A DNA stretch of 64,000 bases from a virus (IMGVR_UViG_3300031088_000793); one strand, 5' to 3'; numbered from the stretch's first letter, positions 27,465 to 58,949 are shown. Notes: generated from the sequence alone by a model not told the origin. A program made the numbers and translations.

Positions 27465-27794
27465 CTATCGGAAACTCTCAGGTGAACAGGAGACGGCTCC
27501 GTTCTCCTCCCGGAAGATGAAGTCACCCTCCTGGCAGCTGTCGTAGACCTCGCCGGTCACGGACCACTGATCCCGAGTCACGCCCTCCTCGTCGGGATAG
27601 CTGTACTCCACGCTGAGGTAGTAGTAGGGAGTGGTCTGGGGAACGGAGACCTTGCCCACTGGGATCAGGCTCGTGGTTGAGCCTTCTTCCCTGTCGATGA
27701 CCTTCCCATAGACCTGCGTGTAGCTGCTGGCGCAGGCCGTGAGCCCGAAGCTAAGCCCCAATGCGAGGATCGCTACCGCGACTCTTTTCTGCAT
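27465..27794 (-). CDS. lipoprotein (109 aa)
   Basis: Signal peptide plus lipobox LTAC. Confidence 0.55.
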   Translation of the reverse strand: MQKRVAVAILALGLSFGLTACASSYTQVYGKVIDREEGSTTSLIPVGKVSVPQTTPYYYLSVEYSYPDEEGVTRDQWSVTGEVYDSCQEGDFIFREENGAVSCSPESFR

Positions 27795-31450: not shown

Positions 31451-32491
31451 TTACTGGGTGGGAGCGGGCGCCGAGCTACCGGGGACCACGACTGCCGATC
31501 CACCACCGGGCCAGCAGCTGAAACCTGCGGGCAGCGTGTAGTTGCTCTGCGAGGCGTCCTTGAGCAGGTCGAAGCAGCGCGAGACGAGCACATTGGGGTC
31601 GTTGCTCACCGAGTCGGAGAGCTCCTGGTTGGCTCGAGCCTGAGCCTTGGCGGTCTCTTCCTGCTGCGTGGCGATCCGGGTCTCACCGATGGCGGCCACA
31701 TAGTCGTCGAGCTTGCGCTGCGTGTTGTCCGAGAGCTTAAGGTAGGAGAAGGTGATGCCCTCGATCTGAGCCTGGTCCTTCTCCGAGAGGCGCTCCTTCA
31801 TGTCGTCCTCGATGACCTTGGAGATCTCGCCGTAGTCGGGAGCGAAGGACAGGTCCACCGAGAGCTCGTCGCTGCCGACGGACTTGAGCTGAGCGATGGG
31901 GTTGTAGTCCTTCAGGGCTTCCTGGACCGACTGCTTGAGCTGGGTGCTCACGATGGCCGAGCGGAAGGACATGGTGGGGTCGTCGGAGCGGTGCTGCTCG
32001 TAGACGCCGGCGGCCTTCTCAGGGTTGATCTGCCAGCGGTTCACGATGTCAGCACAGCCCTGGCTGCCGTCACCGATGCGGACGGGGATGCAGGCTTCGC
32101 CCTCGTACTGGTCGGTCTGGATAGTGCCGTCGATCTCGACGACCTTGGTCCAGGGTGCCTTCAGGTGGGGGCCGGGGTTCAGGGTCTTCTCCGAGACGGC
32201 GCCGAAGTTGACGGCGACGCCGACATTCTTCGCCGAGACGGTGGTGAAGGCCATGGAGATGAGGATGACCAGTGCGACGGTCGAGACCAGGACGCCACCC
32301 CAGCGGATGCCGTTGCTGGCGAGGCTCGCGGCCTTCAGTCGGCTGATCTGCTTCTCGGTGCCGAGGCCGTCAGCCTGAGCCTTGGCCAGGGTCTGGTCGG
32401 CGATCTTCCGGCGCTTGGAGCCGGTGCGGATGGCGGTGAGCCCTCCGAGGAGAACGATGAGGAGGAACACTGTTCCGAATACTGCGCCCAT
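31451..32491 (-). CDS. SPFH/band-7 (prohibitin/HflKC-like) domain membrane protein
   Basis: N-terminal TM helix, then NVGVAVNFGAVS...PGPHLKAPWTKVVEIDGTIQTD, typical of an SPFH domain, followed by a coiled-coil rich C-terminus. Confidence 0.65.
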   Translation of the reverse strand: MGAVFGTVFLLIVLLGGLTAIRTGSKRRKIADQTLAKAQADGLGTEKQISRLKAASLASNGIRWGGVLVSTVALVILISMAFTTVSAKNVGVAVNFGAVSEKTLNPGPHLKAPWTKVVEIDGTIQTDQYEGEACIPVRIGDGSQGCADIVNRWQINPEKAAGVYEQHRSDDPTMSFRSAIVSTQLKQSVQEALKDYNPIAQLKSVGSDELSVDLSFAPDYGEISKVIEDDMKERLSEKDQAQIEGITFSYLKLSDNTQRKLDDYVAAIGETRIATQQEETAKAQARANQELSDSVSNDPNVLVSRCFDLLKDASQSNYTLPAGFSCWPGGGSAVVVPGSSAPAPTQ

Positions 32492-37315: not shown

Positions 37316-37708
37316 TTAGACGGAGGATGCTGGAGTGACCCTGGAGGCCACCCGGTGGGCTCGGAAGCGGATCTTCAGGGAGCGCCAGAATTGCTTGGCT
37401 CTGGATGCAACTGCTGAGGTGAAGCGCTGGATGGGAGGAAACTCCAGGCCGAGGATCGAAAGTCCGAAGAAGACGATGAGCCATCCCGGCCCGGGGAGCG
37501 GCACGAGGATGAGTCCGACGGCGATGACCAGGACGCCAGCAACTGAGACCAGGATCTTGTTGGCAATCCGGAGTGAGGGATGCTTGGTGGCGACCCAGCT
37601 CCGGTAGCGGCTGTAGCCGGATTGGCTGGTATGGCTATGCGGCGCGATGATTCGAGAGGGACCCTTCATGGCATGGCCATATCGGGCGGGGCCACGAGCA
37701 GGGCTCAA
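37316..37708 (-). CDS. PGPGW-motif transmembrane protein
   Basis: LVPLPGPGWLIVFFGLSILGLEF is the signature of the putative transmembrane protein PGPGW family. Confidence 0.6.
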   Translation of the reverse strand: MSPARGPARYGHAMKGPSRIIAPHSHTSQSGYSRYRSWVATKHPSLRIANKILVSVAGVLVIAVGLILVPLPGPGWLIVFFGLSILGLEFPPIQRFTSAVASRAKQFWRSLKIRFRAHRVASRVTPASSV

Positions 37709-40709: not shown

Positions 40710-40857
40710 GGTGTGCCTCCTCGGCATAGTCTGTGGGTAGTCGGGAAATACCCTGCTTCCCGGCTAGCACAAGTCTAACACCTTCGCTGGAGCTTCGCAA
40801 CTGCCCAACGGAGAGAGCCCCCGACCCGAAGGCCGAGGGCTCGATCCTAGAACTGGC

Positions 40858-41973
40858 TCACATGTCCTGGGGAACGGGGTTGGTGGGTCTGAAGGGCACG
40901 GTGAGATCGAAGTCGCTCGACTTCGGCACGGCGCCGTCCCAGTTCTTGCCGGTCTTGGCATTGTAGTCAGCTGCCGTGAAGGGACCGACCTCGTCGCCCA
41001 TCACTGAGACCTGATTGCTGTCCTGGAACTCAGTGAAGCGACCCTCTGAATCCCAGGCAATGTAGCTAGGGCCCTGAGCTCTCTCGGCGAAGACATTGCT
41101 GTCCGTCCTGTAGGTCACTGAGCCCGATCCGTCTGCGTTCTCCGCGATGATGATTCGAGCGTAGCCATCCCGAGTGCCAGTGAGATACATCTTGAGATAG
41201 GTAGAGCCATCCTGACTCAGGACGAGGTTCTGCGGTCGAGAGTCACTCCTGTAGGGGGTGCCACCCTTGGGTGAGGTCATCCTGTCGATGGCCAGAGCAC
41301 CGTCACTTCTGATCTGCGAGTTTACAGCGGAGAGCTGACCATCCTCATCGATGTAGCGGGACTCAGAGTATCCGCTGGGACCGTCATTGCTGTACTTGTA
41401 GACGCCCCAGTGGGCTGCAGGCTCTCTGAAGTCAGTGAGTGTGCACTGACCGTTGAGGTTGGTTCCGTAGGTCAAAGTGGTTGGGCTGTTCGGATCGAAG
41501 CTATCAACCATCTGGCTAGAGAGGATCACCGCGTAGGGCATGGATCCATCTGCGGGGAGTCCTGCGATGCTCTCGCCGTCAGTGTTAGAGGAGCGAATCG
41601 ACTGCCAGCCCTCGGCGTGGGTCAGCGCCTGCTCACCGGCAGCTACACGCTCCTCATTGGCCTTGGAGAAGTCAACCATGTCCTGGGTGATCCTGAGGCT
41701 CAGCGAGACACAGTCAAAGTTAGCAACCACTGCGAGGCCGGGGAACTCATCGCCTCCACCGGGATTCTCCTCTCCAGGAGCTTCACCTTCCTGAGCGGTA
41801 CCTCCGATTCCGGCCGTAGCCTTGAACTCGGGGCTCTCCACATTCTCAGCGTGGACGAAGAAAGATCCACCGTCGAGCGCTGCGGAAGCGGGTACTGCGA
41901 CGAGTGGAATAGCGATGGCCATTCCGAGTACTGAGAAGATAAGCCGATGGCGCTTGCCGAATGCTGTGCTCAA
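40858..41973 (-). CDS. secreted protein, paralog family D, member 1 (371 aa)
   Basis: Sec signal peptide (AVPASA/ALDGGSFFVHAENVE). Shares with the other members the N-terminal FFVHAQNIE..FKATAG module, the MVDFSKANE core and the C-terminal NWDG...SDFDLT.PF block. Confidence 0.65.
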   Translation of the reverse strand: MSTAFGKRHRLIFSVLGMAIAIPLVAVPASAALDGGSFFVHAENVESPEFKATAGIGGTAQEGEAPGEENPGGGDEFPGLAVVANFDCVSLSLRITQDMVDFSKANEERVAAGEQALTHAEGWQSIRSSNTDGESIAGLPADGSMPYAVILSSQMVDSFDPNSPTTLTYGTNLNGQCTLTDFREPAAHWGVYKYSNDGPSGYSESRYIDEDGQLSAVNSQIRSDGALAIDRMTSPKGGTPYRSDSRPQNLVLSQDGSTYLKMYLTGTRDGYARIIIAENADGSGSVTYRTDSNVFAERAQGPSYIAWDSEGRFTEFQDSNQVSVMGDEVGPFTAADYNAKTGKNWDGAVPKSSDFDLTVPFRPTNPVPQDM

Positions 41974-42119
41974 GTTGTCTCCCTCCTAGGGTCGGTGGAG
42001 CATATCGAAGGCCCGATGCGCTAAAATCTCAAATCTTAGCAAGCCCCAGCAACGAGGAACCGCCCGGCTGCTCCGATCCGAAGAGCGAAGCAGCCGGGCG
42101 GCTATGGGGAAGGAGGTGC

Positions 42120-42617
42120 TCAGAGGTAGCGCTTCTCGATCTTGGCGATAGCCTCGAGGAGGACGGCGATCTCGGGGAGCCCACCGGGAGGAGCGTGGAG
42201 CACGGCGACTCCATTCTCCTCGGCGGTTGCGAGCTCCATGTCGGTACCCACGGCCTCGACGCCAGCGGGAGTGACCGCCACGACGAGATCCGACTCGATG
42301 ATGGCCATGTCGTTGACTCGCTGAGCCGACTCATGCCAGCCGCCCGACCAGGCCCGGTGAGGGGAGTAGACGAGGCAGCCGTTGTGGATCAGCTCGGCAC
42401 GGACGAGATCCCGCCAGGCAGCGTAGATCTTGTACTCCTCGGAGTCGATGCGGCCCCACCAGGTCTTGATGGGGCCGATGACCACCACTCGGAGGGGAAC
42501 GCCGTCGGGGAGATCGGTCTCCACGGCGCCGTTGCCACCGACGGCGAGGAGAGCCTTGAAGCGATCGACCATCTCCTCAGTGGTGGGAGGGAAGTCAGCA
42601 GGGTTGAGTTCTGTCAT
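42120..42617 (-). CDS. nucleoside 2-deoxyribosyltransferase-like (Rossmann/SLOG-type) protein
   Basis: VYSP...ESAQRVNDMAIIESDLVVAV...GTDMELATAEENGVAV resembles the nucleoside deoxyribosyltransferase-like fold motifs. Confidence 0.45.
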   Translation of the reverse strand: MTELNPADFPPTTEEMVDRFKALLAVGGNGAVETDLPDGVPLRVVVIGPIKTWWGRIDSEEYKIYAAWRDLVRAELIHNGCLVYSPHRAWSGGWHESAQRVNDMAIIESDLVVAVTPAGVEAVGTDMELATAEENGVAVLHAPPGGLPEIAVLLEAIAKIEKRYL

Positions 42618-42659
42618 AGTCGGATCCTATCGCAGCTTCCGCCAGCTGTCAAAAGCTGA

Positions 42660-43382
42660 CTAGAGCCGCTCTCCCAGGATCACAGACCAGTTGAGCTCTG
42701 AGCGCTCGAAGGGGAGCTGAAGCTCCCGGTTCGAGCTTCCGATGGAGCTCACGCCCTGCTCCCAGCTGATCTTCCTTCGCTTCAGGCTGCTGGCCATGGC
42801 TGAGATGAACTCGCCCCGAGACTCAGCGTCCATGACGAGCTCCACGCTCCAGTAGCGCACGGGCATGGAGCCGAAGTGGTTCTGACCGAAGCCGTCGGGA
42901 TTGGGAAGGAGCTTCCCCATGATGCTCTCAGTCCAGAAGCGATCCTCGAGATCCTTCGCAGAGAGGAAGCCAGCCCTGTTGGCGTCCTGCTTCGAATCGA
43001 ACCACTTCCCATCGAGCTGAGCCTGAACTGCCTGAGCGTTCCGAACTGCCTGATTCGAGGGTGGTTGCCGGGTCCTCTTCTGCCTCGCTGGCTTGCCGTT
43101 GAGCTTGCTCTTGGGGTGGGTCCCTCGCTCTCGCCTCCGGACGCTCTCTGAGCTAGAGCGCACCTTGGAGCCACCCAGGGCCTTGGCTGAGATCTCAGGC
43201 TCGCCGTTGTCTCGAGCCCAGCCATTGACCTCGCTGAGGTCCCGGGCTCTTCCGAGCTCAGAGATTCCACTGTCCACTTCGGGAACAGCCTTCTTCAGCT
43301 TGCTGATCGAGCGAGAGCTCCAGCCGAGGTGAGCGAGGTCTCGCACTGAGACCCAGCCCTGATCTACCCACTTAGCAGCCAT
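42660..43382 (-). CDS. protein with an N-terminal Lsr2-like DNA-binding motif (240 aa)
   Basis: LSEVNGWARDNGEPEISAKA resembles the Lsr2 C-terminal DNA-binding helix (AIREWAR.NGH.VS.RGRIPA), followed by a basic linker. Confidence 0.45.
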   Translation of the reverse strand: MAAKWVDQGWVSVRDLAHLGWSSRSISKLKKAVPEVDSGISELGRARDLSEVNGWARDNGEPEISAKALGGSKVRSSSESVRRRERGTHPKSKLNGKPARQKRTRQPPSNQAVRNAQAVQAQLDGKWFDSKQDANRAGFLSAKDLEDRFWTESIMGKLLPNPDGFGQNHFGSMPVRYWSVELVMDAESRGEFISAMASSLKRRKISWEQGVSSIGSSNRELQLPFERSELNWSVILGERL

Positions 43383-43387
43383 GGGCT

Positions 43388-43621
43388 TTAGCGGCCTGTG
43401 GCTTCAGCATCGGGCTTTGCCCGGGCCCTCCAGAGGGTGAGGGCAGCGGAGCCGACGAAGAAGAGCGCTCCTAGGATACCCACGGAGAACACGGCCCAGA
43501 ACTTGCCGCCATCGAGCCCTGAGGCCACGAGGAGGCTGATTCCGAGGAGGCCGAGGGCAACGATCAGATCTGAGAGCAGGCTGCTGCCGATGGACTTCTT
43601 TGCTTCGCTGCTGTTTGTCAT
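43388..43621 (-). CDS. small membrane protein (77 aa)
   Basis: Two TM helices. Confidence 0.45.
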   Translation of the reverse strand: MTNSSEAKKSIGSSLLSDLIVALGLLGISLLVASGLDGGKFWAVFSVGILGALFFVGSAALTLWRARAKPDAEATGR

Positions 43622-43676
43622 GGAACTACGCTACCGAAGCGAGGCCGGAATCGCTACCGGCCCCGCAGGTCCCCCA

Positions 43677-44765
43677 TCAGTTGCTCGGAGCGAAGGGGAT
43701 CGTCTGGTGGAAGTCGCTGGGCTTGGAGTAGAGACCGTTCCAGTTCTGGCCTGTTCCGGCGTTGTAGCTCTCCTTGGTAGCGCCCTGGAGCTTACCGTTG
43801 GCGTCGTAGAGCCCGGTCACCTTTCCAGCACTGTCGAAGGTGATTCCCACGGGCCCCTGAGCCCTCTTGGCATTGGTGGGCACCAGGGTCTCGAAGTTGT
43901 TCAGGAGCTGGTAGATCAGGGTGCTTGAGCCATCTGGATAGATCTCAAGCTTGACCATGTTGTAGCCATCGACGGTTGTGGGGAAGAGCACATTGAGGAG
44001 CTTGCCGTCTGAGTAGACTCCGAGGAAGTAGGGCTTGACTAGGCTAGCTGCGGGGTTGGAGGATGAGGGGGAAGACTTCCTGTAGACTTCCTTGCCTCCA
44101 TCGCTGAAGACCTTCGAGGAGATAGCCCTGAGGTCACCCTCCTCCTCGATGTAGCGCACCTCTTCCTTGGCTGTCTTGTCCTGGATCGTGTAGAAGATGG
44201 CGTTGGCCTTGGGGATCTCCCGCAGATCCAGAGCCGAGCAGTACTCAGGGTCATCGATGAACATGAGCTTAGTGTTGCGGGTGTCATCGGGGTTGTCGAC
44301 CACATTGGGAATGTCCGCGGTCGTGCTGAGGTGGACGATTCGAGGCTTAGAGCCATCGGCTGGGAAGCCAAGTCTCATCCTGCCAGCAGATGCATCGTAG
44401 TGAGAGATCACGGCCCATCCACCGGAGTGGTACTTGATCTGATCCCACTTGCCCTGAGCTACTAGGAGCTCGTTGGCCTTGGAGAAGTCAACCATTTCCT
44501 TGGTGACCTCGAAGTTCAGCGCACCACAGCGGTAGCTAGCGAAGACTCGGGAGTCGCCCGTGTTGCCTCCACTGGGATCCGAGACGATCTTGGTCCCCAT
44601 GCCCGCGATGGCCTGCACACCGGCTGTGCTCTTGTTCTGAGCCTTGACGAAGAACCCTCCACCCGGAAGGCTAGCAGATGCTGGAAGTGCTGCGAGGGGT
44701 ACTGCGAGGATGAGGCCCAGGGCTGATACCATCAGCAGCTGCCTTCGGGATGCGGGTCTCTTCAC
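43677..44765 (-). CDS. secreted protein, paralog family D, member 2 (362 aa)
   Basis: Signal peptide ...ALPASA/SLPGGGFFVKAQNKS, the MVDFSKANE core, and the C-terminal NWNGLYSKPSDFHQTIPF block. Confidence 0.65.
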   Translation of the reverse strand: MKRPASRRQLLMVSALGLILAVPLAALPASASLPGGGFFVKAQNKSTAGVQAIAGMGTKIVSDPSGGNTGDSRVFASYRCGALNFEVTKEMVDFSKANELLVAQGKWDQIKYHSGGWAVISHYDASAGRMRLGFPADGSKPRIVHLSTTADIPNVVDNPDDTRNTKLMFIDDPEYCSALDLREIPKANAIFYTIQDKTAKEEVRYIEEEGDLRAISSKVFSDGGKEVYRKSSPSSSNPAASLVKPYFLGVYSDGKLLNVLFPTTVDGYNMVKLEIYPDGSSTLIYQLLNNFETLVPTNAKRAQGPVGITFDSAGKVTGLYDANGKLQGATKESYNAGTGQNWNGLYSKPSDFHQTIPFAPSN

Positions 44766-44930
44766 TGCTCATCTTCCTAGCTCTTAGGGTGCATTTTTCG
44801 CAGGATCGGGTGGGTCCTGTTCTACCCTGAGGCCTGTGTCAGTGTGGTGCTCAGATCCGAAGTGCCTGGGGCAAGGCGGATGGCCTGAGAGTCGGGTAGC
44901 CCTACTATCGCATAGCCCATACCCCTCGGC

Positions 44931-44974
44931 ATCGAGTGGAGCCCCGGGAATTCCGAACCGGAGCTCGATGTTCC
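44931..44974 (-). terminator. hairpin downstream of 45054..46187
   Basis: 12-bp inverted repeat GAGCCCCGGGAA/TTCCCGGGGCTC with a ~20-nt loop. Confidence 0.4.
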
Positions 44975-45053
44975 CGGGGCTCAGCGATCAGCCCAGTAGC
45001 CCTACTGAGGAGGCTTAGCCGTGAAGGATATCCGGGGGCTCTCGCCGCGCTGC

Positions 45054-46187
45054 TTAGAGGCTGGGAGGCGTCGGCACGAAGGGGAAGCTCAGGTCGAAGT
45101 CCGAAGGCTTCTGGTAGGAGCCGTCCCAGTTCATTCCGGTAGCCTCGTTGTACTCCTCGACGGTGAATGGTCCACCGCGCCAGAATACGGTGGAGCCGGG
45201 CTTGCCACCCTCGAGCCCTGTGATCTCACCCTCAGCGTTCCAGATGATGCCGGTGGGACCCTGCGTTCTGTTGGGAGCACCGATCTTCAGGGATGTGGCT
45301 GAGTTTGCCCCCAGGTAGTTGCTGTAGGAGATCGATCCCGAGCCATCGGGATTGGCTGTGACAGTGATCCTGTTGTAGCCGTCGATGGTCTCCTTGAGGA
45401 TGAGCTCTGCTCTTACCACACCGGCCTGGCTCTTTGAGAGCGAGTAGGGCTTGCTGTTGCTCTTTGCAGGGTTGTAGGAAACCGCCGATTCCTTTCGACT
45501 GATGGTGTTAGCGCCGTCTGCCTGCCGTGCTGAGCTCACGGCCACAAGTGCGCCGTCTTCCCGGAGGTAGCGACTCTCGGAGAATGCACCGTTGGAGAGC
45601 ATCCAGTAGCCGAAGCCCTTGCCCTCGGCAGCTCCGGAGCGAGCATCGAGGTAGCTGCAGTTGGCACTGTTGTCAAGCCTGAGCACAACGCCGTTGGTGG
45701 GACCGGGCTGGTCGCTAGTTGCGGGAAGTGCCATGTCTGACTTCAGGTAGACCAGCGGAGGAACTGATCCGTCCTCGGGATAGCCGGCGATCATCTTCCT
45801 CTCAGTTGCTGAGAAGTAGGCCATCGACTGCCAGCCCTCTGCGTTGGTCTGAGGCGCCTTGCCCTCGGCTGCAAGAGCCTGGTTCGCCTTGGAGAAGTCC
45901 ACCATGGCCTGAGTCACTGCGAAGCCCAGCGGGCCGCAGCTGTAGCTCGCGAGGGTAGCTGAGCTCTCGTCCCCGCCGGGATCGACCTCTCCGCCGCCCG
46001 GGGCTGAGCCGTCTGACTTCAGGCCTGCATAGGCTTCGTACTCGGGCTCTTCGATGTTCTGAGCGTGGACGAGGAAGCGGCCGTCGTCGAGGCTTGCCGA
46101 TGCGGGCAGAGCTACGAGGGGGACGAGGATGGCGGCGCCGATGGCTGAGACGATGATGCCCTGGCGCCTACGAGTTGCTCGATTCAA
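45054..46187 (-). CDS. secreted protein, paralog family D, member 3 (377 aa)
   Basis: Signal peptide, LDDGRFLVHAQNIEEPEYEAYAG, MVDFSKANQ, and the C-terminal NWDGSYQKPSDFDLSFPF block. Confidence 0.65.
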   Translation of the reverse strand: MNRATRRRQGIIVSAIGAAILVPLVALPASASLDDGRFLVHAQNIEEPEYEAYAGLKSDGSAPGGGEVDPGGDESSATLASYSCGPLGFAVTQAMVDFSKANQALAAEGKAPQTNAEGWQSMAYFSATERKMIAGYPEDGSVPPLVYLKSDMALPATSDQPGPTNGVVLRLDNSANCSYLDARSGAAEGKGFGYWMLSNGAFSESRYLREDGALVAVSSARQADGANTISRKESAVSYNPAKSNSKPYSLSKSQAGVVRAELILKETIDGYNRITVTANPDGSGSISYSNYLGANSATSLKIGAPNRTQGPTGIIWNAEGEITGLEGGKPGSTVFWRGGPFTVEEYNEATGMNWDGSYQKPSDFDLSFPFVPTPPSL

Positions 46188-46263
46188 AGCTGGTTCTCCT
46201 TGATTGCAGGTGGAGCCATATCGACAACCGTTGGAGAATTCAGTGGATCTCTCTGCGAAAAGA

Positions 46264-46300
46264 AGCGACTGTCCTCGAACCGAGGCTCGGGGACAGTCGC
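46264..46300 (-). terminator. rho-independent terminator downstream of 46322..47461
   Basis: 10-bp stem GCGACTGTCC/GGACAGTCGC followed on the minus strand by TTCTTTTCG. Confidence 0.55.
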
Positions 46301-46321
46301 TCTAGGCTAGACCGAGATCAG

Positions 46322-47461
46322 CTAACTGAGAGGGACAGCTTCGAAGGGGATTGTGAGATCGAAGTCAGTGCCCTTGAGGTAGCTTCCGTCCCAGCTCTGC
46401 CCAGTGAGCTCATTGTACTTGGCCGCTGTGAAGGCGCTGTCTCCGAAGTTCTCGTGGCTGTCGTAGGATTGAAGGTAGGTGAAGTCCCCAGAAGAGTTCC
46501 ATCTTACAGTCACAGGTCCGTTCTTTAGAGGGGCATAGGTCTCCGCCTGCTGTCCATCAGCCGTGAGCCCTCTGTGATCCAGGTATTGCACCTCTCCCGA
46601 GCCGTCGGCATTCACTCCCAGCGAGACCTTGTTGGCGCCGTCGATGGGCGTCTTGAGGTAGACCTGAATCGTGAGGCTACCGTCCAGCCCTCGGTAGATC
46701 ACAGAGGGCTTACTGTCGCTCTTAGCGTGGTCCACTAGGGACCCTGAGACGCCCCTGTCGACTGTGGTTCTACCGTCCGTCTGCTTTGCCACGGTGACTG
46801 CGCGGAGCTCGCCTTCCTCGAGGATCCAGCGCGTGTCCGCATAGTAGTCTCGCTCAGGCGCGTTGACCTGATCGTAGGAGGGATAGGCATTGTAGGACAG
46901 CCTGTCTCCGTTCTTGGGCGTTGAGCGCCTGTCGTAGATCTGACACATCTCGCCCTCCTGGTAGGCAAAGGCCTTGGTGTCAGGAGTAAGACTCAGGGGT
47001 GCTGGAACTGCCATGCTGTCGGATAGAGTGACGAGTAGGGCCTTAGCCTCGCCCTCGGGATAGCCCAGCGCGACGCTCCTCGTAGCCATGTAGAAGCTCG
47101 ACATCGACTGCCAGCCATCCGGAGAAGTTTCGGGAGTCCGAGACTCATTGGCCTTGGAGAAGTCCACCATGGCCTGAGTGATCTTGAGCTCCATGGGACC
47201 GCACTGGTAGCTTGCGAGCACACCGGAGCTGTCGGTGGGTCCGCCAGGGCTTTCTGTACCTGAGCCACCGCCTCCACTGGGATCTACTCCTTTGAGTCCA
47301 GCAGTGGCCTTGAATTTGCTGTCTTCGATGTTCTGCGCGTGGACGAAGAACCCACCCCCATCGAGGCTTGCCGATGCGGGAACAGCGATGAGTGGCACAG
47401 CTAGAGCTGCACCTAGAGTGGCGAGGAAGATCTTCCTCGCTTTGCGGGGCGTTCTGTTCAA
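46322..47461 (-). CDS. secreted protein, paralog family D, member 4 (379 aa)
   Basis: Its N-terminal 60 aa are nearly identical to member 5 (MNRTPRKARKIFLATLGAALAVPLIAVPASASLDGGGFFVHAQNIEDSKFKATAGLKG). Confidence 0.65.
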   Translation of the reverse strand: MNRTPRKARKIFLATLGAALAVPLIAVPASASLDGGGFFVHAQNIEDSKFKATAGLKGVDPSGGGGSGTESPGGPTDSSGVLASYQCGPMELKITQAMVDFSKANESRTPETSPDGWQSMSSFYMATRSVALGYPEGEAKALLVTLSDSMAVPAPLSLTPDTKAFAYQEGEMCQIYDRRSTPKNGDRLSYNAYPSYDQVNAPERDYYADTRWILEEGELRAVTVAKQTDGRTTVDRGVSGSLVDHAKSDSKPSVIYRGLDGSLTIQVYLKTPIDGANKVSLGVNADGSGEVQYLDHRGLTADGQQAETYAPLKNGPVTVRWNSSGDFTYLQSYDSHENFGDSAFTAAKYNELTGQSWDGSYLKGTDFDLTIPFEAVPLS

Positions 47462-47505
47462 GATCTTCTCTCCCTGATGAAAGCAGCACTGGTCACATCA
47501 TAGGA
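47455..47505. repeat. duplicated ~50-bp 5' region, also present at 48895-48945
   Basis: CTGTTCAAGATCTTCTCTCCCTGATGAAAGCAGCACTGGT versus CTGTCCAAGATTTTCTCTCCCTGATGAAAGCTGCACTGGT, immediately upstream of members 4 and 5. Confidence 0.6.
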
Positions 47506-47639
47506 ATTGAGCTCTCCAGCCGCGTAATCGGTGAGGTTCCGAGGCTGGAGAGATTCCGCATCTAGAATGCTGAAATGTTCCTATGTGACGGATTATCAAC
47601 ACAGCTGAAGCGCCGGAGATAGCACCGTAGACTCACTGA

Positions 47640-47680
47640 CAGGAATTGCCCCTCGGAGCTCAGCTCCGAGGGGCAATTCC
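47640..47680 (-). terminator. strong hairpin downstream of 47700..48902
   Basis: 19-bp perfect inverted repeat AGGAATTGCCCCTCGGAGC/GCTCCGAGGGGCAATTCCT with a 3-nt loop. Confidence 0.5.
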
Positions 47681-47699
47681 TGAGATCCTAGTTCAATCG

Positions 47700-48902
47700 C
47701 TAGGAAGCAGTGGGCTGGAAGGGGGGAGTGGTGTTGAAGTCGGAGAACTTGGGGTAAAAGCCATCCCAGTTCTGGCCAGTAGCTGCGTTGTACTCAGCCA
47801 CTGTCGGGTAGGAATTCTCGCCGTCAGCTGATGAGTAGAAGCGCATGTTTCCATCGCCGAGGTCTACGATCCTACCGGGGCCCTGCTTTCTGTCTGACTG
47901 CTCAGTCAGGGCATAGCCATTGGAATCGGATCCGTTGTACTTCAGATACATGATCTCGACACTGTTGATGCGGATGTAGTCGTAGCCATCTCGGATCGAG
48001 TCATAGCGAATAGTAAGGTTATTATCTCCAGTAAGGGAGTAGAAGGGCAGATTCGAAGCCGTTGCGGGAGGGCTAAAGTCCAGCATGCTCTTCTGGCGGG
48101 CCACCGAGATCCTGCCGCCGGTCTGTGTGGCAACATTGACCAGGTTCAGCTGACCTTCCTCCATCACATAGCGACTTTCGGAAATGCTCGGAGCTCCCGA
48201 TCCAGAGGGGGCAAAGTTATATGCAACCATCGCACCGGCCTTAGGTGCTCCTCTGAGATCGTAGTACATATACATCCCGCCGCTATCGAGGACCTGGAGC
48301 TTTACGCCCGAAGAGGGAGCTAGAGAGACGGGCAGAACACCGACTCCAGCATTGAGGTTCACGACCTCAGGTCGAGATCCATCCTCGGGGAAGCCTAGCC
48401 GCATTGTGTTTGAAGCTGCATCGTAGGAAGAAATGGACTGCCAGCCATCGGGGTGAGTTCGAGGAGCCTTGCCTTCAGCCACTAGGGCCTCATTGGCGTT
48501 GGAGAAGTCGACCATTGCCTGTGTGACCCTGAAGCTCACAGGGCCCTTCTGGTAGTCGACCAGGAGGCTAGAGCTGTCCTCTGGACTACCGGGAACTGCT
48601 CCATCTCCACCCGTGCCGCCGCCGGGCGTAGTGCCACCGGAACCATCTCCAGGTGTAGTGCCACCGCCGCCAGTGCCATCTCCGGGAGTTGTGCCTCCAC
48701 CGGAGCCGCCACCGCCGCCGGGGTTGGTGCCTTTGAGGCCGGCCGTAGCCTTGAACTTGCTCTCCTCGATGTTCTGCGCGTGGACGAAGAATCCACCTCC
48801 ATCGAGGCTTGCCGATGCGGGAACGGCGATGAGGGGGACGGCTAGAGCTGCCCCGATGGTGGCGAGGATAATCCTCTTCTGTCTACGGGGTGTCCTGTCC
48901 AA
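47700..48902 (-). CDS. secreted protein, paralog family D, member 5 (400 aa), with a Gly/Thr/Pro-rich low-complexity linker
   Basis: Signal peptide and the shared N- and C-terminal modules. Linker GGGGSGGGTTPGDGTGGGGTTPGDGSGGTTPGGGTGGDG. Confidence 0.65.
   Translation of the reverse strand: MDRTPRRQKRIILATIGAALAVPLIAVPASASLDGGGFFVHAQNIEESKFKATAGLKGTNPGGGGGSGGGTTPGDGTGGGGTTPGDGSGGTTPGGGTGGDGAVPGSPEDSSSLLVDYQKGPVSFRVTQAMVDFSNANEALVAEGKAPRTHPDGWQSISSYDAASNTMRLGFPEDGSRPEVVNLNAGVGVLPVSLAPSSGVKLQVLDSGGMYMYYDLRGAPKAGAMVAYNFAPSGSGAPSISESRYVMEEGQLNLVNVATQTGGRISVARQKSMLDFSPPATASNLPFYSLTGDNNLTIRYDSIRDGYDYIRINSVEIMYLKYNGSDSNGYALTEQSDRKQGPGRIVDLGDGNMRFYSSADGENSYPTVAEYNAATGQNWDGFYPKFSDFNTTPPFQPTAS
48600..48725. 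repeat. coding tandem repeat (Gly-rich linker of member 5)
   Basis: Imperfect ~30-nt units encoding TTPGDG(S/T)GGG. Confidence 0.5.
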
Positions 48903-49212
48903 GATTTTCTCTCCCTGATGAAAGCTGCACTGGTTTGCATCGTAGGCTCAAGGTCTATTGCTACGCTCTCCCGGCACCGGAGCTGGTTGGCACTCCGGAT
49001 TCGAGCGTCGCTGCACTTGGAGCACAGAGAGTCGCCTACCCAATCCACTATCAACAACGGTTGCAATTCAAGTTAGCCTCCGCTGAAAAACGAAGAGGCC
49101 AGTCAGGGAATCTGGACCTATTCACCAGGACCTGTGTGAATGGTACAAGAAAGTAGCTGATCTGTTGGCGCTATTGCACAATGGCTCCTCAGCGCCATTC
49201 CCTCGGCCAAAG

Positions 49213-49251
49213 AGAAAGGCCACCTTCCTTCCCAGGTGGGGAGGCGGTGGC
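49213..49251 (-). terminator. rho-independent terminator downstream of the small ORF 49280..49449
   Basis: GGCCACC...GGTGGCC stem with inner pairing, followed on the minus strand by TTTCTCTTTGG. Confidence 0.45.
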
Positions 49252-49279
49252 CTGAGCGGATGGAGCTAGGAGCGGATGC

Positions 49280-49449
49280 TCACCAGCCCGAGCGGACGGC
49301 GGCGCGCTTCGCGGTCGAGCGAGTGCGCTGACGGGGCGGGCGGTTGTCGTGGGTGCCCCAGGCACCGGAGAACGCACGCTCCGTGGCGGCCTTGGCAGCG
49401 ATGGGGTTGGCGGTGGCGCGGAACTTGGGGTTCTTCTTGGCAGCCATGG
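49280..49449 (-). CDS. possible small basic protein (55 aa)
   Basis: MAAKKNPKFRATANPIAAKAATERAF... with an AAAGGAC Shine-Dalgarno, a promoter-like TTGTGC-N16-TATTGT upstream, and a terminator downstream. Confidence 0.35.
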
Positions 49450-49584
49450 GAAAGTCCTTTGTGCGGGGGATGGTGAGTCCCGGGGGTGTGGTGTGATTCC
49501 TACAATACACGATCTATCGTAGCGCACAACCCCCGGAACCGAAACTCTTCCAGCGACTTTAGCGCGGCCTGAGATCCATCCGAA

Positions 49585-50769
49585 TCAGTTGCAGAGTCTG
49601 AGCACTCCATTGGCCATGGGTGCTACCATGCAGCTACCGTCGGTAGCGGACTTGGAGAGCAGACCCGGAGCCTTCTCTCCAGCGACCTCGGACCAGCTCA
49701 CGCCACCGTCGCTAGAGCCATAGAGAGCGACCTTGCCCACTGACCAGTCAATGCTCGAAGCGATGAGCCGATCTCCCGTAGATCCGAGAAGCGAGGAGTA
49801 GGCGGGAAGTCCAGTAGCACTCAGAGGACTCCAGCTGCCTCCACCTGTTGAGGCAAAGTAGCTCGGCTCAGTGCCGTCGGTAGCTCCGAGGGCCGTGGAG
49901 TTGCGGATCACAGTGCCACCCTGCTCGATAGCGCCGTTGGCCATCCTGCCGATGGGGCTCTTGGCCAGGGATGTTCCGGGGATCTGCTGAGCAGAGAGCT
50001 TCCAGTTGGCCCCATCGGAGGACTCGATCAGAGCGCTGCTGATGTTGCCATCCGCTGTGCCGACGAGCCCCGTAGCTGCTACGAGCTTACCGCCGAAGGA
50101 GTATACCTCTACGATGGAGGTTGAACTGTAGGCTGCGACGACTTCAGGAGGAAGCGCTGCGTTGCTCCAGCTGACTCCATCCCGGGAGTAGATCAGAGGC
50201 GCTACGCCGCTCTCCCCAGAGCCGCCCGCTACAAAGGCCCCATTGCCGTAGGCCACATAGGTGAAGCTGCTAAGATTCGAGCTCTGCTCAGTCCAGTTAG
50301 CACCGTCGGTGGAGCTCATGATTCTGCCATCATTGGAGACGGCAACATAGCGGCCACCGCCGTAGGCCACGCTGAGCCAGCCACCTTCGGGCGCATCGTC
50401 GCTCGCGGTCCAAGTCTTACCGTCCGCGGAGCTCATGGTTCTGTGAGCGCCGCCCGTCGAGACCGCCACATACTTGCCGGCTCCGTAGGTCGCGCCTGTC
50501 CAGTTACCGTCGGGAACCGTATAGAGCTCAGCCTGACCTGGCTCAGCGGGGCTGGGAGTCTCTTCGCCACCTCCGGGTGGCAGTGAGACCCCTCTCATGC
50601 CAGCAGTTGCTTCGTACTGCTTTTCCTCGATGTTCTGAGCGTGGACAAGGAAGCCGCCTCCATCCAGTGCGGCTGAGGCTCCAGGGACCAGAGCAAAGCT
50701 GCCTACCGCCGCGATGGCTAGCGCTCCGAGTAGTCGATTTCTGCTCTGTAGTGGCTTCTTGCTCATCAT
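49585..50769 (-). CDS. secreted BNR/Asp-box repeat protein (sialidase-like beta-propeller), family D-related N-terminus
   Basis: Signal peptide and ALDGGGFLVHAQNIEEKQYEATAG as in family D, followed by at least six Asp-box repeats (SSADGKTWT, STDGANWT, SRDGVSWS, SSDGANWK, STGGGSWS, SSDGGVSWS). Confidence 0.7.
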   Translation of the reverse strand: MMSKKPLQSRNRLLGALAIAAVGSFALVPGASAALDGGGFLVHAQNIEEKQYEATAGMRGVSLPPGGGEETPSPAEPGQAELYTVPDGNWTGATYGAGKYVAVSTGGAHRTMSSADGKTWTASDDAPEGGWLSVAYGGGRYVAVSNDGRIMSSTDGANWTEQSSNLSSFTYVAYGNGAFVAGGSGESGVAPLIYSRDGVSWSNAALPPEVVAAYSSTSIVEVYSFGGKLVAATGLVGTADGNISSALIESSDGANWKLSAQQIPGTSLAKSPIGRMANGAIEQGGTVIRNSTALGATDGTEPSYFASTGGGSWSPLSATGLPAYSSLLGSTGDRLIASSIDWSVGKVALYGSSDGGVSWSEVAGEKAPGLLSKSATDGSCMVAPMANGVLRLCN

Positions 50770-51031
50770 TGCGCTCCCGATCCGAGGTACAGCTTGGTTG
50801 AGAGCTATATCGGGAAATCGCCCAGGTCACAGCATTGTTTGACATTTCAATAAGGATATACTGGCCATAGAATCCAGATGATGCAGAGGCGTTGCTACTG
50901 TTGAAGAGCAATCTCTTGAGCTCGTTAGACGCAGCATAGGAGACGATAGCAAAGAGCGCCGAAGGGGATGTGTGATACTTCCCGCTCCGGCGCTCAGAGG
51001 GCTGACTACGGCCTCCTAGTAGCGCTTGGGG

Positions 51032-53358: not shown

Positions 53359-53613
53359 TCAGCGTTCCTCCTTTGCGAGGCTCTCCCAGTCACAGGAAAG
53401 CCCTCCTGAATTGTAGCTCTCTGAGGCCCAGATGCAGAGCACCGTCCGACCATCCGGAAGCTTCTCCTCGAAGCTATAGTGAGCGTGGGGTGTCTGCGGC
53501 TCTTGGGCGGCTTCGGCCTTCTGGGCGTCCTGCGTAGCAGGAGTCGCACAGCCAACGAGGCTCAAGCTGAGCCCCAGCAGAGCAGCTGCGACCAGTGTCT
53601 TTCTACGCTTCAT
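53359..53613 (-). CDS. lipoprotein (84 aa)
   Basis: Signal peptide plus lipobox LVGC. Confidence 0.5.
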   Translation of the reverse strand: MKRRKTLVAAALLGLSLSLVGCATPATQDAQKAEAAQEPQTPHAHYSFEEKLPDGRTVLCIWASESYNSGGLSCDWESLAKEER

Positions 53614-53626
53614 GGTCGATTCCTTT

Positions 53627-54178
53627 CTAGGCGGGCCATCTGAGGTTGATCTCGCTGTAGTCGTAGGCTCCGAGCTCTACGACCTTGGTGGACTGATTGT
53701 TTCCCGTCCCCTTGAAGCCCCGGACAGTGAGAGTGTCTCCGTGGGAAACGGAGACCTGCTCCCCGTCCTTGAGGCTCAGCGTGTAGAGAACTGAGCCCTT
53801 GACATCTGGCCTGTGATCAGGATTCGATCTTACACCATGGAGGAAGCCGATGTGTTCGTGGACGATGGGTTCGGGGTCCACGGGCGTTGAGGCGGCCTCA
53901 ATGGGCTCCCGGTAGCCCTCTTCATCGTCGAAGTCAAAGTCGCCGAAGTCACCCTCGTCGAGGTAGCCGTAGTAGGATTGGCTGTAGCGGCTCGGTCGCT
54001 CCAGCCGCCGGATGTGGATGGGAAGCCCGATGGCGCCAAGGAGGAGGCGGGCAGAGGGCAGCGTAGGCAGCGGGGCCTTTGCTGCGCGCTCCGCTTCGAA
54101 GTCCCTGCGGCGCTTCGCATCGATCTCCTCGGAGCTCAGGCCCCGATCCTCGGGCTGGCCCTCGTCTATCTCGATCAC
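53627..54178 (-). CDS. hypothetical protein (183 aa)
   Basis: Minus-strand ORF overlapping the next gene by 4 nt. Confidence 0.5.
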   Translation of the reverse strand: MIEIDEGQPEDRGLSSEEIDAKRRRDFEAERAAKAPLPTLPSARLLLGAIGLPIHIRRLERPSRYSQSYYGYLDEGDFGDFDFDDEEGYREPIEAASTPVDPEPIVHEHIGFLHGVRSNPDHRPDVKGSVLYTLSLKDGEQVSVSHGDTLTVRGFKGTGNNQSTKVVELGAYDYSEINLRWPA

Positions 54179-54606
54179 TGGTCGTCCTCCTGAGCTGACG
54201 CTTCGCCCTGGCGCTCGATGCTGTCCCAGTCAGGGCTCTGGTGGATGACCCGCCAGCCCGAGGTCTCTGAGGTCACTGCCTGGATCTGAAGCACGGAGTC
54301 TTCGAGATCCAGGGGCCGGGGCCCTTCTGACCCGGCCAGGGTGATGCTGAGAGTGTCTCCCCCTCGGATCGCATGTCCCTGGATGCGGAGGTCTGAGAAG
54401 TCCACGAGGAGAAGCGTGCCTGCCATCTCCAGGGAGAACAGCGCATCTGCCCGGATAGAATCGGCTTCCTCGTGGTGGAGGTCGATGGTCTGGATCGAGA
54501 TGCTCCGGATCCGGATGACCTTGCCGATGTGGCTGAGGAGCAGCTCATTGAGCTGTCGGCCGCCCTTGGGCTCTACGGCTCCAGCGAGCTCGGATACCTC
54601 GATCAC
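54175..54606 (-). CDS. small protein, paralog family E (GTG start, VIEVSEL...)
   Basis: GTGA start/stop overlap with the upstream paralog. Shares MIE(V/L)S... at the N-terminus and ...SG.W(K/R).IH... near the C-terminus with 54603..55004 and 55001..55345. Confidence 0.45.
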   Translation of the reverse strand: MIEVSELAGAVEPKGGRQLNELLLSHIGKVIRIRSISIQTIDLHHEEADSIRADALFSLEMAGTLLLVDFSDLRIQGHAIRGGDTLSITLAGSEGPRPLDLEDSVLQIQAVTSETSGWRVIHQSPDWDSIERQGEASAQEDDQ

Positions 54607-55004
54607 AGCTTCAGCTCCTCTGTGGTTGCGGTGACCCACTCGGAGCCCCGGTGGATGAGCTTCCAGCTGCCGGAATCCTCCTGGAAGACCTCGATGAGCG
54701 AGAGCTCGTGATCCACAGAGATGGGATCTCCCCAGGAGAGTGCGACGCTGAGCCTGGAGTAGGTTCGGTTGCTCCTGTTGATTCGATGGCGCTCTTCGTC
54801 AGCCAGCGACACACCCATCAGCAAACCTGTGCTGTCGGAGATCTTTCTGTCGACTCCGTCTACGCGGTAGTTGTAGTCGTAGCTCTTGACATTGCTCACG
54901 GTTCGAACTCGGAGAGTCCTACCGTGGAGGCTCAGGAGCAAGCCGTGGAGGTCCTGAGCGTTCTCGATCTGAGCGATGGCCGATTCCTCTGAGACTTCGA
55001 TCAT
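54603..55004 (-). CDS. small protein, paralog family E (133 aa)
   Basis: MIEVSEESAIAQIENAQDLHGLLLSLHGRTLRVRT...EDSGSWKLIHRGSEW. Confidence 0.5.
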   Translation of the reverse strand: MIEVSEESAIAQIENAQDLHGLLLSLHGRTLRVRTVSNVKSYDYNYRVDGVDRKISDSTGLLMGVSLADEERHRINRSNRTYSRLSVALSWGDPISVDHELSLIEVFQEDSGSWKLIHRGSEWVTATTEELKL

Positions 55005-55345
55005 GCTGTTTCCACCTTCTTAGCTTCAGGAGCGATGGAGCCGAGGTAGATCTGCTTCCACTCTCCGCTATCTGCCTGGAGCACCTCGACGGAGCTCGTC
55101 CGACGAATGAGAAGCATCGTTCCCAGACCTTCGATGAGGAGGAAGAGCCTCTGACCCGAACGGCTAATGCCGCCCTCCTCGAAGCTCAATCCCTGGAGCC
55201 TTCCGAGATTCCGGATCCGCTCTCCGGTGGAGGTGTTCACGGTGCCAGCCCGGACGACCCGGCCGTAGTAGGGCTGAAGGAGCTCGTAGAGTCCCTCGAC
55301 TGAGATCGACTCGGTAGCTACTGCTGCATCGTTCTGAAGTTCGAT
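55001..55345 (-). CDS. small protein, paralog family E (~115 aa; start MIELQND)
   Basis: Internal ATG of the track ORF. ...ADSGEWKQIYLG C-terminal block. Confidence 0.45.
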   Translation of the reverse strand: MELQNDAAVATESISVEGLYELLQPYYGRVVRAGTVNTSTGERIRNLGRLQGLSFEEGGISRSGQRLFLLIEGLGTMLLIRRTSSVEVLQADSGEWKQIYLGSIAPEAKKVETA

Positions 55346-55350
55346 CATTG

Positions 55351-55656
55351 CTAGAGCCTCTCGTTGATCGGGCTGCCGGGGTTGAGGACCTTCCAGACAC
55401 CGTCCATCAGAATCTCGATCCGGTGGAGACGGTTGAAGCGCCAAGGCTCCTCCTTGCCAAGGCTGAAGTAGGGACGATCCCCATCGAAGTAGTCGTCCCG
55501 GTTGTAGCCGATGCGCTGAAGGATGCCGACGCGCTCGACCAATCCCCTGCGGATCAGGACGGTGTAGCCGATGTAGCTTCGGAGCTTCTCGTAGAGCTCG
55601 ATGTCCGTAGCGGCGTTCTGGAGGGGCTTCTCGCTCTCCTCAGCGACTGAGATCAC
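55351..55656 (-). CDS. hypothetical protein (101 aa), possibly a distant family E member
   Basis: MISVAEESEKPLQNA... N-terminus is similar to the family E starts. Confidence 0.45.
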   Translation of the reverse strand: MISVAEESEKPLQNAATDIELYEKLRSYIGYTVLIRRGLVERVGILQRIGYNRDDYFDGDRPYFSLGKEEPWRFNRLHRIEILMDGVWKVLNPGSPINERL

Positions 55657-58244: not shown

Positions 58245-58949
58245 TCAGTTGCTGTTGTTCTGGCGATCCTTCTCGGCGGCAGCGTCCTCGACCTCGGAGG
58301 CGATGACTGCCACCCAGAGAGCGTCGATGGCGTCGACCGAGCGATCCTTGCTCTGGGCCTCGATCTTGAGGTCCGAGGTCAGGGAGAAGGCGGCCTTGGA
58401 GATCTTGTACTCCTCCGAGCCGCTCTTGCCCTTCACGGCGAAGTTCATGGTGAGGCTGAAGTTCTGCTTGGCCGAACCGACGGCCTTGCCCTCGGCGTCC
58501 TGGATCTCGTACTCCGAGAGGAACATGCTGAGCTTCTGCTGGATGACGCCTCGGGGCGTGTTGCTGTAGTCGTAGGTTTCGGCCCGGTGATGGACCACCC
58601 GGTATCCCTCAGCCTCGCTGCCGACGAGGTTGCCCGCGGTGGAGAAGAGGGAGTAGGTGTCGCCGATGGCGTAGATGGCCTGGCCCCGGATCTCACCGAT
58701 CTCAGTGCCGTCGGCGGTGATGGTCCAGCGGTCGCCGAAGGTGAAGGCAGCCTTCTTGGCCTCGATGACAGAAGCGCCCTCCAGGGTGTCGAGCACGGCC
58801 TCGGAGTCGGCCACATCGGCGGTGACAAGGGGCTCAGTGGAGCCTCCGTTGGCCATGGAGCAGCCGGTGAGCACCGAGAGCACAGCGGCCGTGGCGAGAG
58901 CGGTGGCGGCCAGACGGCGGCCGGAGCGGAGGAGGCGAGTGGCGGTCAT
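58245..58949 (-). CDS. lipoprotein (234 aa)
   Basis: Signal peptide plus lipobox LTGC. Leaderless consensus promoter at 58956-58984. Confidence 0.6.
   Translation of the reverse strand: MTATRLLRSGRRLAATALATAAVLSVLTGCSMANGGSTEPLVTADVADSEAVLDTLEGASVIEAKKAAFTFGDRWTITADGTEIGEIRGQAIYAIGDTYSLFSTAGNLVGSEAEGYRVVHHRAETYDYSNTPRGVIQQKLSMFLSEYEIQDAEGKAVGSAKQNFSLTMNFAVKGKSGSEEYKISKAAFSLTSDLKIEAQSKDRSVDAIDALWVAVIASEVEDAAAEKDRQNNSN

Follow-up and report, generated by a model that had tools for sequence, protein, structure and literature searches.

The 64,000-nucleotide stretch IMGVR_UViG_3300031088_000793, referred to below as the window and numbered from its first letter, carries an array of six genes between positions 40858 and 50769, all on the minus strand: five paralogs, which we call A to E, and a sixth gene, F. 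We read this locus as a recombination-driven cassette island on a giant phage-like element that encodes exported, surface-docked binding proteins, an explanation to which we give an even chance. Loci of this type, in which a multigene family of exported proteins combines a constant leader with variable parts that recombine, are known already; the N-terminal tag that the six proteins share, the core domain of A-E and the carrier are new relative to the libraries searched, and the family is very rare. Tag and core are candidate new families.

In the mechanism we propose, the proteins would leave the cell by Sec export, and removal of the signal peptide after a predicted ASA site would expose a 24-residue amphipathic beta-hairpin as the new N-terminus. 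This hairpin would act as a common docking tag, fixing different binding modules to one shared envelope partner, and a flexible Gly/Pro/Thr stalk of 22-61 residues would display an all-beta domain of ligand-binding type, a meander in A-E and a propeller in F. The modules would differ in their ligands, the most plausible candidates being surface glycans, phage receptors and competing particles, and the repertoire would change through gain and loss of whole genes and through allele swapping of gene middles. Signal-peptide cleavage, surface docking and ligand binding are the steps of this scheme that we infer. If the tag is a docking device, it would represent a new mode of protein attachment to the cell envelope, with a giant phage re-dressing its host.

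Export signals and the N-terminal hairpin

The N-termini of all six proteins have 3-5 lysine or arginine residues within the first 12 positions, a hydrophobic stretch of ~17 residues (mean Kyte-Doolittle value of the h-region ~2.4-2.7 in each, by a heuristic n/h/c rule) and ASA at -3 to -1. The proteins probably carry Sec-type signal peptides that are cleaved after ASA, in agreement with a preliminary description of this region, which had reported Sec-like leaders with an AxA site on six open reading frames (ORFs); those frames were recovered where it had placed them, the positions it quoted as starts being the 3' ends of minus-strand genes. No lipobox was found, none of the six having a cysteine near the cleavage site, and there is no family-wide twin-arginine translocation (Tat) motif: B (SRRQLLM) and C (TRRRQGI) resemble one, and the twin arginine is absent in D (PRKARKIF), A (GKRHRLIF) and F (SRNRLLG). 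The pattern LP.[TSA]G is likewise absent from all six proteins, whose C-termini are polar (…PFxPTxx).

Export is also suggested by a pair of cysteines, at residues 84 and 177 of C. Among 64 family members aligned to the core profile, 61 of them complete, the pair is present in 43 and wholly missing in 18, and not one complete member has a single cysteine of the two; the three apparent exceptions to this all-or-none rule are N-terminally truncated fragments. The 43 members with the pair have exactly two cysteines in the mature protein, and E belongs to the cysteine-free group. Because presence is all-or-none, the pair appears to form a structural disulfide, and since bacterial disulfides are formed outside the cytoplasm, this is indirect evidence that the proteins are exported.

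Directly behind the predicted cleavage site, 24 residues are conserved in all six proteins (S/A-LDGGGFFVHAQN…ATAG, for example SLDGGGFFVHAQNIEESKFKATAG). The motif G.F[FLHI][VI][HKR]A has exactly six matches in a six-frame translation of the 64 kb, and because all of them fall at these six N-termini the repeat is not a chance pattern. The shared module of the preliminary description is thus real, and it proved as unfamiliar as had been stated there, with no match in Pfam, PHROGs, NCBIfam or PDB sequences; a profile of the tag alone, too short for the purpose, returned nothing at E <= 0.01 from 5.8 billion proteins. Between paralogs, synonymous differences are 0.44-0.85 in the hairpin codons and 0.55-0.73 in the core, and the rate of nonsynonymous differences (dN) is 0.2-0.5 in the hairpin as against 0.65-0.78 in the core. 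With synonymous sites saturated while dN is low, the tag has been kept constant by selection on the protein, and recent gene conversion is ruled out as the cause of its conservation by the same saturation, D and E, with their similar 5' blocks, being a partial exception. The identity of F to A-E is 56-74% in the hairpin and only 14-28% in the signal peptide. Because F keeps the tag and not the signal peptide, the conserved functional unit is, on the sequence evidence, the 24-residue mature N-terminus.

AlphaFold models the tag of C as a two-strand hairpin (residues 38-43 and 51-56) with low confidence and does not place it confidently against the domain that follows (pLDDT ~50-66 in C and <50 in F). 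As read from the sequence, the hydrophobic residues of the two strands (F, V, A and F/I, A, A) are conserved and alternate with polar residues, a one-face pattern that a docking hairpin would need; docking itself is presumed. The tag is followed by a linker rich in Gly, Pro, Thr and Ser. Its length is 22-37 residues except in E, where it is 61. The linker of E, 77% of which consists of these four residues, is the Gly/Thr/Pro linker that the earlier account had noticed in one member.

A more specific suggestion, possible but doubtful in our judgement, is that the hairpin is a universal plug that completes or inserts into a common envelope scaffold, giving a phage-encoded surface display reshuffled as co-circulating genomes recombine. 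Such a plug could add a strand to a pilus or wall protein (donor-strand-type beta augmentation) or oligomerise into a small barrel, and if so rival phages might be excluded or the adhesion of the infected cell changed. In the donor-strand fibres of TasA/TapA, which are Sec-exported, the first mature residues form a beta-strand that completes the fold of a partner (PMC9674648, PMC10151520). That is the mechanism proposed for the tag, by analogy only and as a precedent rather than a relative: the array proteins have no sequence or fold similarity to TasA/TapA, no gene for a dedicated SipW-type peptidase was seen, and nothing points to polymerisation.

Displayed domains and their relatives

The proteins A-E align over their full length at 37-42% identity, and the two core blocks that had been reported as common to them, YxCGP..VTQAMVDFSKAN and YNxxTGxNWDG..SDFD..PF, are present in all five. 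The statement that the ~200 residues in the middle differ completely does not hold. Mean pairwise identity is 0.28 in two middle stretches and 0.40 in a central SESRY…DG…R block, compared with 0.52 in the signal peptide, 0.61 in the hairpin, 0.51 in the N-terminal cap and 0.55 in the C-terminal block; a single hidden Markov model (HMM) spans all 300 core positions (E <= 1e-100), and the AlphaFold model of C (mean pLDDT 79.7, pTM 0.72, 194 residues >90) forms one continuous domain of ~300 residues. This model is nearly all-beta, with helices at 93-107 (TQAMVDFSKAN) and at 343-350, in the YNxxTG block. On this model, the A-E core is a beta-hairpin meander of a new family, with a conserved helix cap and a conserved C-terminal motif.

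The core has no relative in Pfam, PHROGs or NCBIfam, where the individual paralogs gave sub-threshold noise only, or among PDB sequences, which were searched with the family profile, and no relative of its fold was found among solved structures or BFVD viral predictions (BFVD TM-scores <= 0.25). Compared with the single-layer beta-meanders of MORN-repeat and OspA-type proteins, A-E show high RMSD (root-mean-square deviation) and TM-scores <= 0.25, and the helix cap, the C-terminal YNxxTGxNWDG and the disulfide are features foreign to MORN. No Pfam match to MORN (PF02493/PF07661) was obtained for A-E or for five scanned sister proteins that have the CGP-helix module described below (P0067, P0073, P0076, P0089 and P0092), the resemblance being a weak one of fold only.

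A variable, recombining, beta-rich family is typical of tail fibres, and the weak BFVD matches include tail-fibre proteins, so we considered whether the array might encode virion components, receptor-binding or decoration proteins whose hydrophobic N-termini are incidental. We regard this as very improbable: canonical signal-peptide features occur in all six proteins together with a covarying disulfide pair, the BFVD scores are as low as stated, and the genes look like separate transcription units among genes for membrane proteins, outside any structural module.

The sixth protein, F, shares only the hairpin and the style of linker with A-E, and the remainder is a beta-propeller, which AlphaFold models with a pLDDT of 64.5 overall and of 85-95 for the first blades. 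The motif SxDGxxW occurs six times in F, and there are two C-terminal cysteines. The preliminary description had assigned it the shared leader and a six-blade, sialidase-like propeller. Tag and propeller were recovered, and the sialidase label was not: the FRIP motif is absent and F falls below the Pfam thresholds for BNR_2 and for DUF6242, and an identity as sialidase or BNR (PF13088) is not supported. By sequence, F is related to 'WD40/YVTN/BNR-like' proteins of the DUF6242_C type (PF25852). The propeller neighbours include GH74 xyloglucanases, whose 16-17% identity is the highest in the list, and there is a weak match to the 'F510_1955 family glycosylhydrolase' model (29 bits, cutoff 175). 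The hairpin tag sets F apart from both the DUF6242_C-type and the GH74 propellers.

An HMMER search with a profile of 22 members against 1.84 billion representative proteins (E <= 0.001) returned 105 matches, ~50 of them full-length members. Most of the others cover only the N-terminus of the profile and have the same signal peptide, hairpin and linker in front of other domains, including DUF285/PARCEL repeats (P0102 and P0105; Pfam E 1e-94 and 3e-108), a tachylectin-like propeller (P0106) and the BNR-like propeller of F (P0091 and P0093). DUF285/PARCEL repeats (PF03382/TIGR02167) were not found in window proteins, whose link to those relatives is the tag only. In P0067, P0077, P0084 and others, a 'YxCGP…ITQxMxDxSxxN' helix and a C-terminal 'AGGxxxW' enclose MORN-like 'HRxDGPA' repeats. 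In P0089 and P0092 this helix-plus-repeat (CGP-helix) module stands behind a type IV pilin-type N-terminus (…GFSMLEAVVVVGVLLALAIGG…, with a weak ComGE match), which replaces signal peptide and tag.

The architecture of P0089 and P0092 is that of modular adhesive pilins (PMC8179133). In these modular type IV pilins, exemplified by PilB and PilC of Streptococcus sanguinis, the N-terminus is a short assembly module that carries an adhesive or lectin domain grafted onto it and exposes it outside the cell (PMC8179133, PMC9934059). The window proteins differ from them in having a Sec-type signal peptide and a beta-hairpin where modular pilins have a class III signal peptide and a hydrophobic alpha-1 helix, and no pilus genes were found in the window. 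On the contig L013 (359-8451; ENA ERZ27272754 k141_233724, 45% GC), two tagged DUF285/PARCEL genes lie directly upstream of a pilin cluster consisting of four type IV pilin-like genes (GFSLIDV…), a gene for a 491-aa protein and one for a PilT-like ATPase, and in that lineage the tag may work with type IV filaments.

We favour a docking tag because the same segment is attached to repeat, propeller and meander domains that are unrelated to one another and are of kinds typical of ligand-binding scaffolds, and we favour display because a pilin N-terminus takes the place of the tag in P0089 and P0092. The chief rival, which we consider unlikely, is that the proteins are released into the medium as soluble effectors or enzymes, acting for instance on polysaccharides or on the cell wall, and that the hairpin serves as a pro-peptide or intramolecular folding aid. 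Membrane anchor, lipobox and LPXTG are all absent, which would suit release, and an enzyme would be consistent with the weak glycosylhydrolase match and GH74 neighbours of F and with the charged residues of the core, where R206 and R231 are invariant in the 22 members and D97, D181, R183, E204, D363 and D365 nearly so. However, no catalytic family was matched in Pfam, NCBIfam, PDB sequences or by fold, a domain-specific folding aid is hard to square with the same hairpin in front of non-enzymatic DUF285/PARCEL and MORN-like repeats, and the pilin-fused relatives argue for display over release.

Recombination and turnover of the array

The fourth and fifth members, D and E, had been described as a very recent duplication that included 50 bp of upstream DNA. 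Their close similarity is in fact confined to a block of 236 nt (32 nt upstream and 204 nt coding, 82% identical), outside which the proteins are 36% identical, and synonymous differences in the shared part amount to 0.44 per site. By this comparison the similarity is an exchange of a 5' segment and no recent gene duplication.

Whole cassettes also come and go. The F cassette, comprising promoter region, gene and tail, is present in the window and in the related locus L012; in L004 it is replaced by ~120 bp holding a terminator hairpin, and L015 is also without F, as judged from ORF matches only, the junction being unaligned. L004 has, in addition, an extra family member in front of E, and the 3' 800 bp of its E gene have been replaced, the product (P0007) combining the 5' end of E with a D-like core. 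In L012, where F is present, the next gene is a D-like variant.

A different kind of replacement was found in the middle of A. In 150-nt windows, L011 and our sequence are mostly 92-100% identical, with brief drops to 83% and 89% at two places in genes that do not belong to the array, whereas the middle segment of A falls to the values given in Table 1. In this segment the rate of synonymous differences (dS) is 0.88 and dN/dS is 0.27, compared with a dS of 0.06 in the 5' part of the gene. Because dS is so high, the segment is taken to be an old divergent allele imported by recombination and not as a product of local hypermutation. Hypermutation of the type driven by diversity-generating retroelements (DGR) was rejected, as there is no reverse-transcriptase family among the 84 window ORFs or the paralogs and dS is high in the variable segment. 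No pair of template and variable repeats was found in the locus, where direct repeats are conserved gene blocks or short matches and the sole inverted repeat is 27 nt at 74%.

For B, C and D compared with their L004 orthologs, dN/dS is 0.04-0.09, no higher than in most neighbouring genes, and for this reason the genes are taken to be functional and pseudogenisation is ruled out. The earlier picture of a diversifying exported family in a mobile-element-like setting is retained with respect to the export features, the setting and the tandem family; diversification by point mutation does not fit these values. From the comparisons made here, variation arises through gain and loss of cassettes and through imported segments.

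The array flanks are matched at 95-97.5% identity by several shorter contigs, which come from other samples, and in 10 related loci arrays of 1-6 members occupy the same syntenic site, an expansion and contraction that the preliminary description had proposed looking for. L002 and L016 have four members each, L018 and L019 three each, and L001 at least four plus one; the only member in L005 is frameshifted. In distant relatives the flanking genes have 35-77% aa identity and the array comes after a small basic ORF; homologs of a 165-aa gene follow it wherever downstream sequence exists, except in L005, where homologs of the 86-aa and 409-aa genes come directly after the single member. Because the flanking 165-aa protein is far better conserved in these relatives than are family members (68-77% versus 27-44% identity), we regard the array as a turnover hot spot, and it is among the most variable parts of the otherwise 95-100% identical genomes compared here. 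The L005 sequence (14-1266; GCA_011800935.1, JAAIGE0101390943.1) is the only family member in an NCBI assembly, its frameshift leaving 229 and 202 aa; it lies on a 6.6-kb contig in an assembly of >1 million contigs and is probably contaminating DNA in a large genome project.

The high turnover of cassettes and segments points to a changing target, such as the receptors of rival phages (superinfection exclusion), surface glycans or cell-cell contact partners. The roles suggested earlier, surface or receptor interaction, superinfection exclusion and carbohydrate binding, are plausible candidates. Tandem genes with a conserved N-terminus, a variable remainder and recombination at conserved blocks would also describe an array of polymorphic toxins, in which a trafficking N-terminus is joined to variable toxic C-termini. 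This we hold to be exceedingly improbable, since no immunity genes lie between the members, no toxin domain was matched, and the C-terminal motif is conserved, the variable part being the middle of one homologous fold.

As a cassette island for probable surface proteins, the array resembles the Vlp/Vsp families of Mycoplasma and the Vsp/Vlp families of Borrelia, which likewise consist of tandem paralogs with a conserved 5' end (ribosome-binding site, signal peptide and first mature residues) and likewise shift their repertoire by recombination between copies or alleles. Those families are lipobox lipoproteins of cellular genomes with phase switching or repeat slippage, whereas the array has no lipobox and a phage-like carrier, and no switch element (invertase or homopolymer tract) was seen in it. 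The conserved unit of the array, a 24-residue hairpin after an ASA site, is a further difference from these lipoproteins.

The carrier element and minor features

The window is 100% identical to positions ~242,506-306,505 of ENA ERZ27247443 k141_645502, a contig of 673,309 bp, of which ~84 kb was examined (the window, L007 and L009). Every credible one of ~89 putative window genes is on the minus strand, as are nearly all called genes in 20 kb of flanking contig. A family scan of 84 window ORFs, the six array genes being scanned separately, matched 26 PHROG families, most of them function-unknown, versus 18 Pfam families. The product of a 720-aa ORF (61054-63216) shares 47% identity with a protein of Mycobacterium phage WXIN and 28% with a Rhodococcus phage Weasels2 protein, and had no match in the IMG/VR scan. 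The GC content of 62%, the actinophage matches and the Gly/Thr/Pro linkers, which are common in exported actinobacterial proteins, suggest that the element probably has an actinobacterial host. Very large phages are known mainly from metagenomes, and most of their genes are without assigned function. We call the carrier a giant phage-like element, and if it is a phage, its 673 kb would rank it among the largest known.

The families matched in the window include DUF808, YitT, a cation-efflux protein, a fatty-acid desaturase, an SPFH protein and a PGPGW protein, and envelope proteins are unusually many. The ORFs of the desaturase, cation-efflux and SPFH/Band 7 proteins (Table 1) were placed by coordinates, and those of DUF808, YitT and PGPGW by size and membrane profile. 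The window looks like an envelope-directed region, and its candidate lipoproteins point to a wider remodelling of the envelope by the element.

Several observations weigh against an exported, surface-docked family on a phage-like element. No docking partner was identified, and no consistently adjacent gene could serve as one; the invariant and nearly invariant charged residues would suit an enzyme as well; the tagged relatives beside pilus genes in L013 are on a 45% GC contig that may be cellular; and no capsid, portal or terminase gene was found in the 84 kb examined. Nor were there IMG/VR matches, and with the exception of the 720-aa ORF the window proteins queried were unmatched in GenBank phages.

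These points bear on another possibility, which seems to us quite unlikely: that the contig is cellular or the family of host type. The proteins would then be adhesins of an ordinary bacterial kind, acting together with type IV pili, and the array a bacterial contingency locus. The pilin-fused relatives and the pilin/PilT cluster of L013 would be expected on this account, as would the many membrane, transporter and lipoprotein genes of the window and the lack of virion genes in the stretches examined. This reading is opposed by the GTDB search, made with patterns from two subfamilies, which found no relative across 185,579 species, each represented by one genome. In addition, all core-family loci are syntenic pieces of one type of element with one-strand arrays of small genes, mostly without Pfam matches, and the 26 PHROG families and the actinophage protein as best GenBank match favour a phage-like element. 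The core family and a P0076-type sister family had no confirmed relative in IMG/VR or GTDB genome scans, and neither the array locus (megablast) nor C (tblastn) found a match in GenBank phages or PLSDB plasmids. The preliminary description, two errors of detail aside, was largely right in what it observed, and its interpretation is partly supported and is sharpened by the mature hairpin, the recombination in genes under purifying selection and the 673-kb contig.

Table 1. Positions of the array genes, their parts and other features in the window (all on the minus strand)
Feature	Position	Remarks
Paralog A	40858-41973	371 aa; signal peptide 1-31, hairpin 32-55, linker 56-85, beta core; TTG start
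Paralog B	43677-44765	362 aa; most divergent hairpin of the set (SLPGGGFFVKAQNKSTAGVQAIAG); GTG start
Paralog C	45054-46187	377 aa; structure-modelled member; TTG start
Paralog D	46322-47461	379 aa; TTG start
Paralog E	47700-48902	400 aa; Gly/Thr/Pro linker of 61 residues (56-116); both cysteines absent; TTG start
F	49585-50769	394 aa; hairpin tag 34-57 and linker, then beta-propeller
Hairpin-tag coding segment, A	41809-41880	
Hairpin-tag coding segment, B	44601-44672	
Hairpin-tag coding segment, C	46023-46094	
Hairpin-tag coding segment, D	47297-47368	
Hairpin-tag coding segment, E	48738-48809	
Hairpin-tag coding segment, F	50599-50670	
Terminator-type perfect hairpin, A	40815-40842	
Terminator-type perfect hairpin, B	43641-43664	
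Terminator-type perfect hairpin, C	44939-44982	
Terminator-type perfect hairpin, D	46262-46302	
Terminator-type perfect hairpin, E	47640-47682	
D 5' block	47258-47493	32 nt upstream and 204 nt coding; 82% identical to E block
E 5' block	48699-48934	partner of 47258-47493
F cassette	49535-51030	promoter region, gene, tail; present in window and L012
Middle of gene A	41090-41690	~600 nt; 61-87% identity to L011 allele
Small basic ORF	49280-49447	55 aa; between F and E; just upstream of array in every case
Host-like membrane-function ORFs	8002-9198, 18564-19697, 23680-24627, 25463-26371, 31451-32491, 37316-37708	
Candidate lipoproteins	9250-9627, 27465-27794, 53359-53613, 58245-58949	lipobox-like …SGC, …TAC, …VGC, …TGC

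Each of the six genes has a Shine-Dalgarno sequence 5-8 nt before the start codon, and a perfect GC-rich hairpin of 24-44 nt lies 3' of each of A-E; since each has its own Shine-Dalgarno sequence and terminator hairpin, A-E look like separate transcription units. The spacers between paralogs (130-290 nt) contain terminators and promoter regions only, and between A and B there are three unrelated genes, of 165, 240 and 77 aa. Four of the five paralogs start with TTG (41973, 46187, 47461 and 48902) and one with GTG. Public gene calls for A use an internal Met, by which the n-region of the signal peptide would be lost.

A scan for the sigma-70 consensus gave a single site, not above chance, and a 9-mer search of the six upstream regions found only a CCTCGGATC-like hairpin arm. 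By eye, and with no statistics, a CGATAT(n)GCTC element was seen ~30-45 nt before the start codons of A, C and F (near 42005, 46225 and 50805; CGATATGCTCC, CGATATGGCTCC and CGATATAGCTCT, respectively), and in the same way a CTAYGATG element at equal distance upstream of D and E. The two may represent a common -10-like promoter element.

The small ORF of 55 aa is very basic (MAAKKNPKFRATANPIAAKAATERAFSGAWGTHDNRPPRQRTRSTAKRAAVRSGW). Its copy in L012 shows 100% aa identity, in surrounding DNA of 85% identity, and it can still be recognised in L002, L016 and L018, which are distant relatives; it might regulate the array. No family match was obtained for the 165-aa gene at 42120-42617 (minus strand), which lies within the array region. 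Among the neighbours, the 409-aa and 405-aa proteins had no tblastn match in GenBank phages, and the 409-aa protein none in PLSDB plasmids; tRNA and Rfam scans of the window found nothing. A second family of small genes lies at 54175-55444 on the minus strand, with members of 154, 133 and 147 aa in the window, and appears to be present in six or more tandem copies in L002 (3344-6490) and in several in L016.

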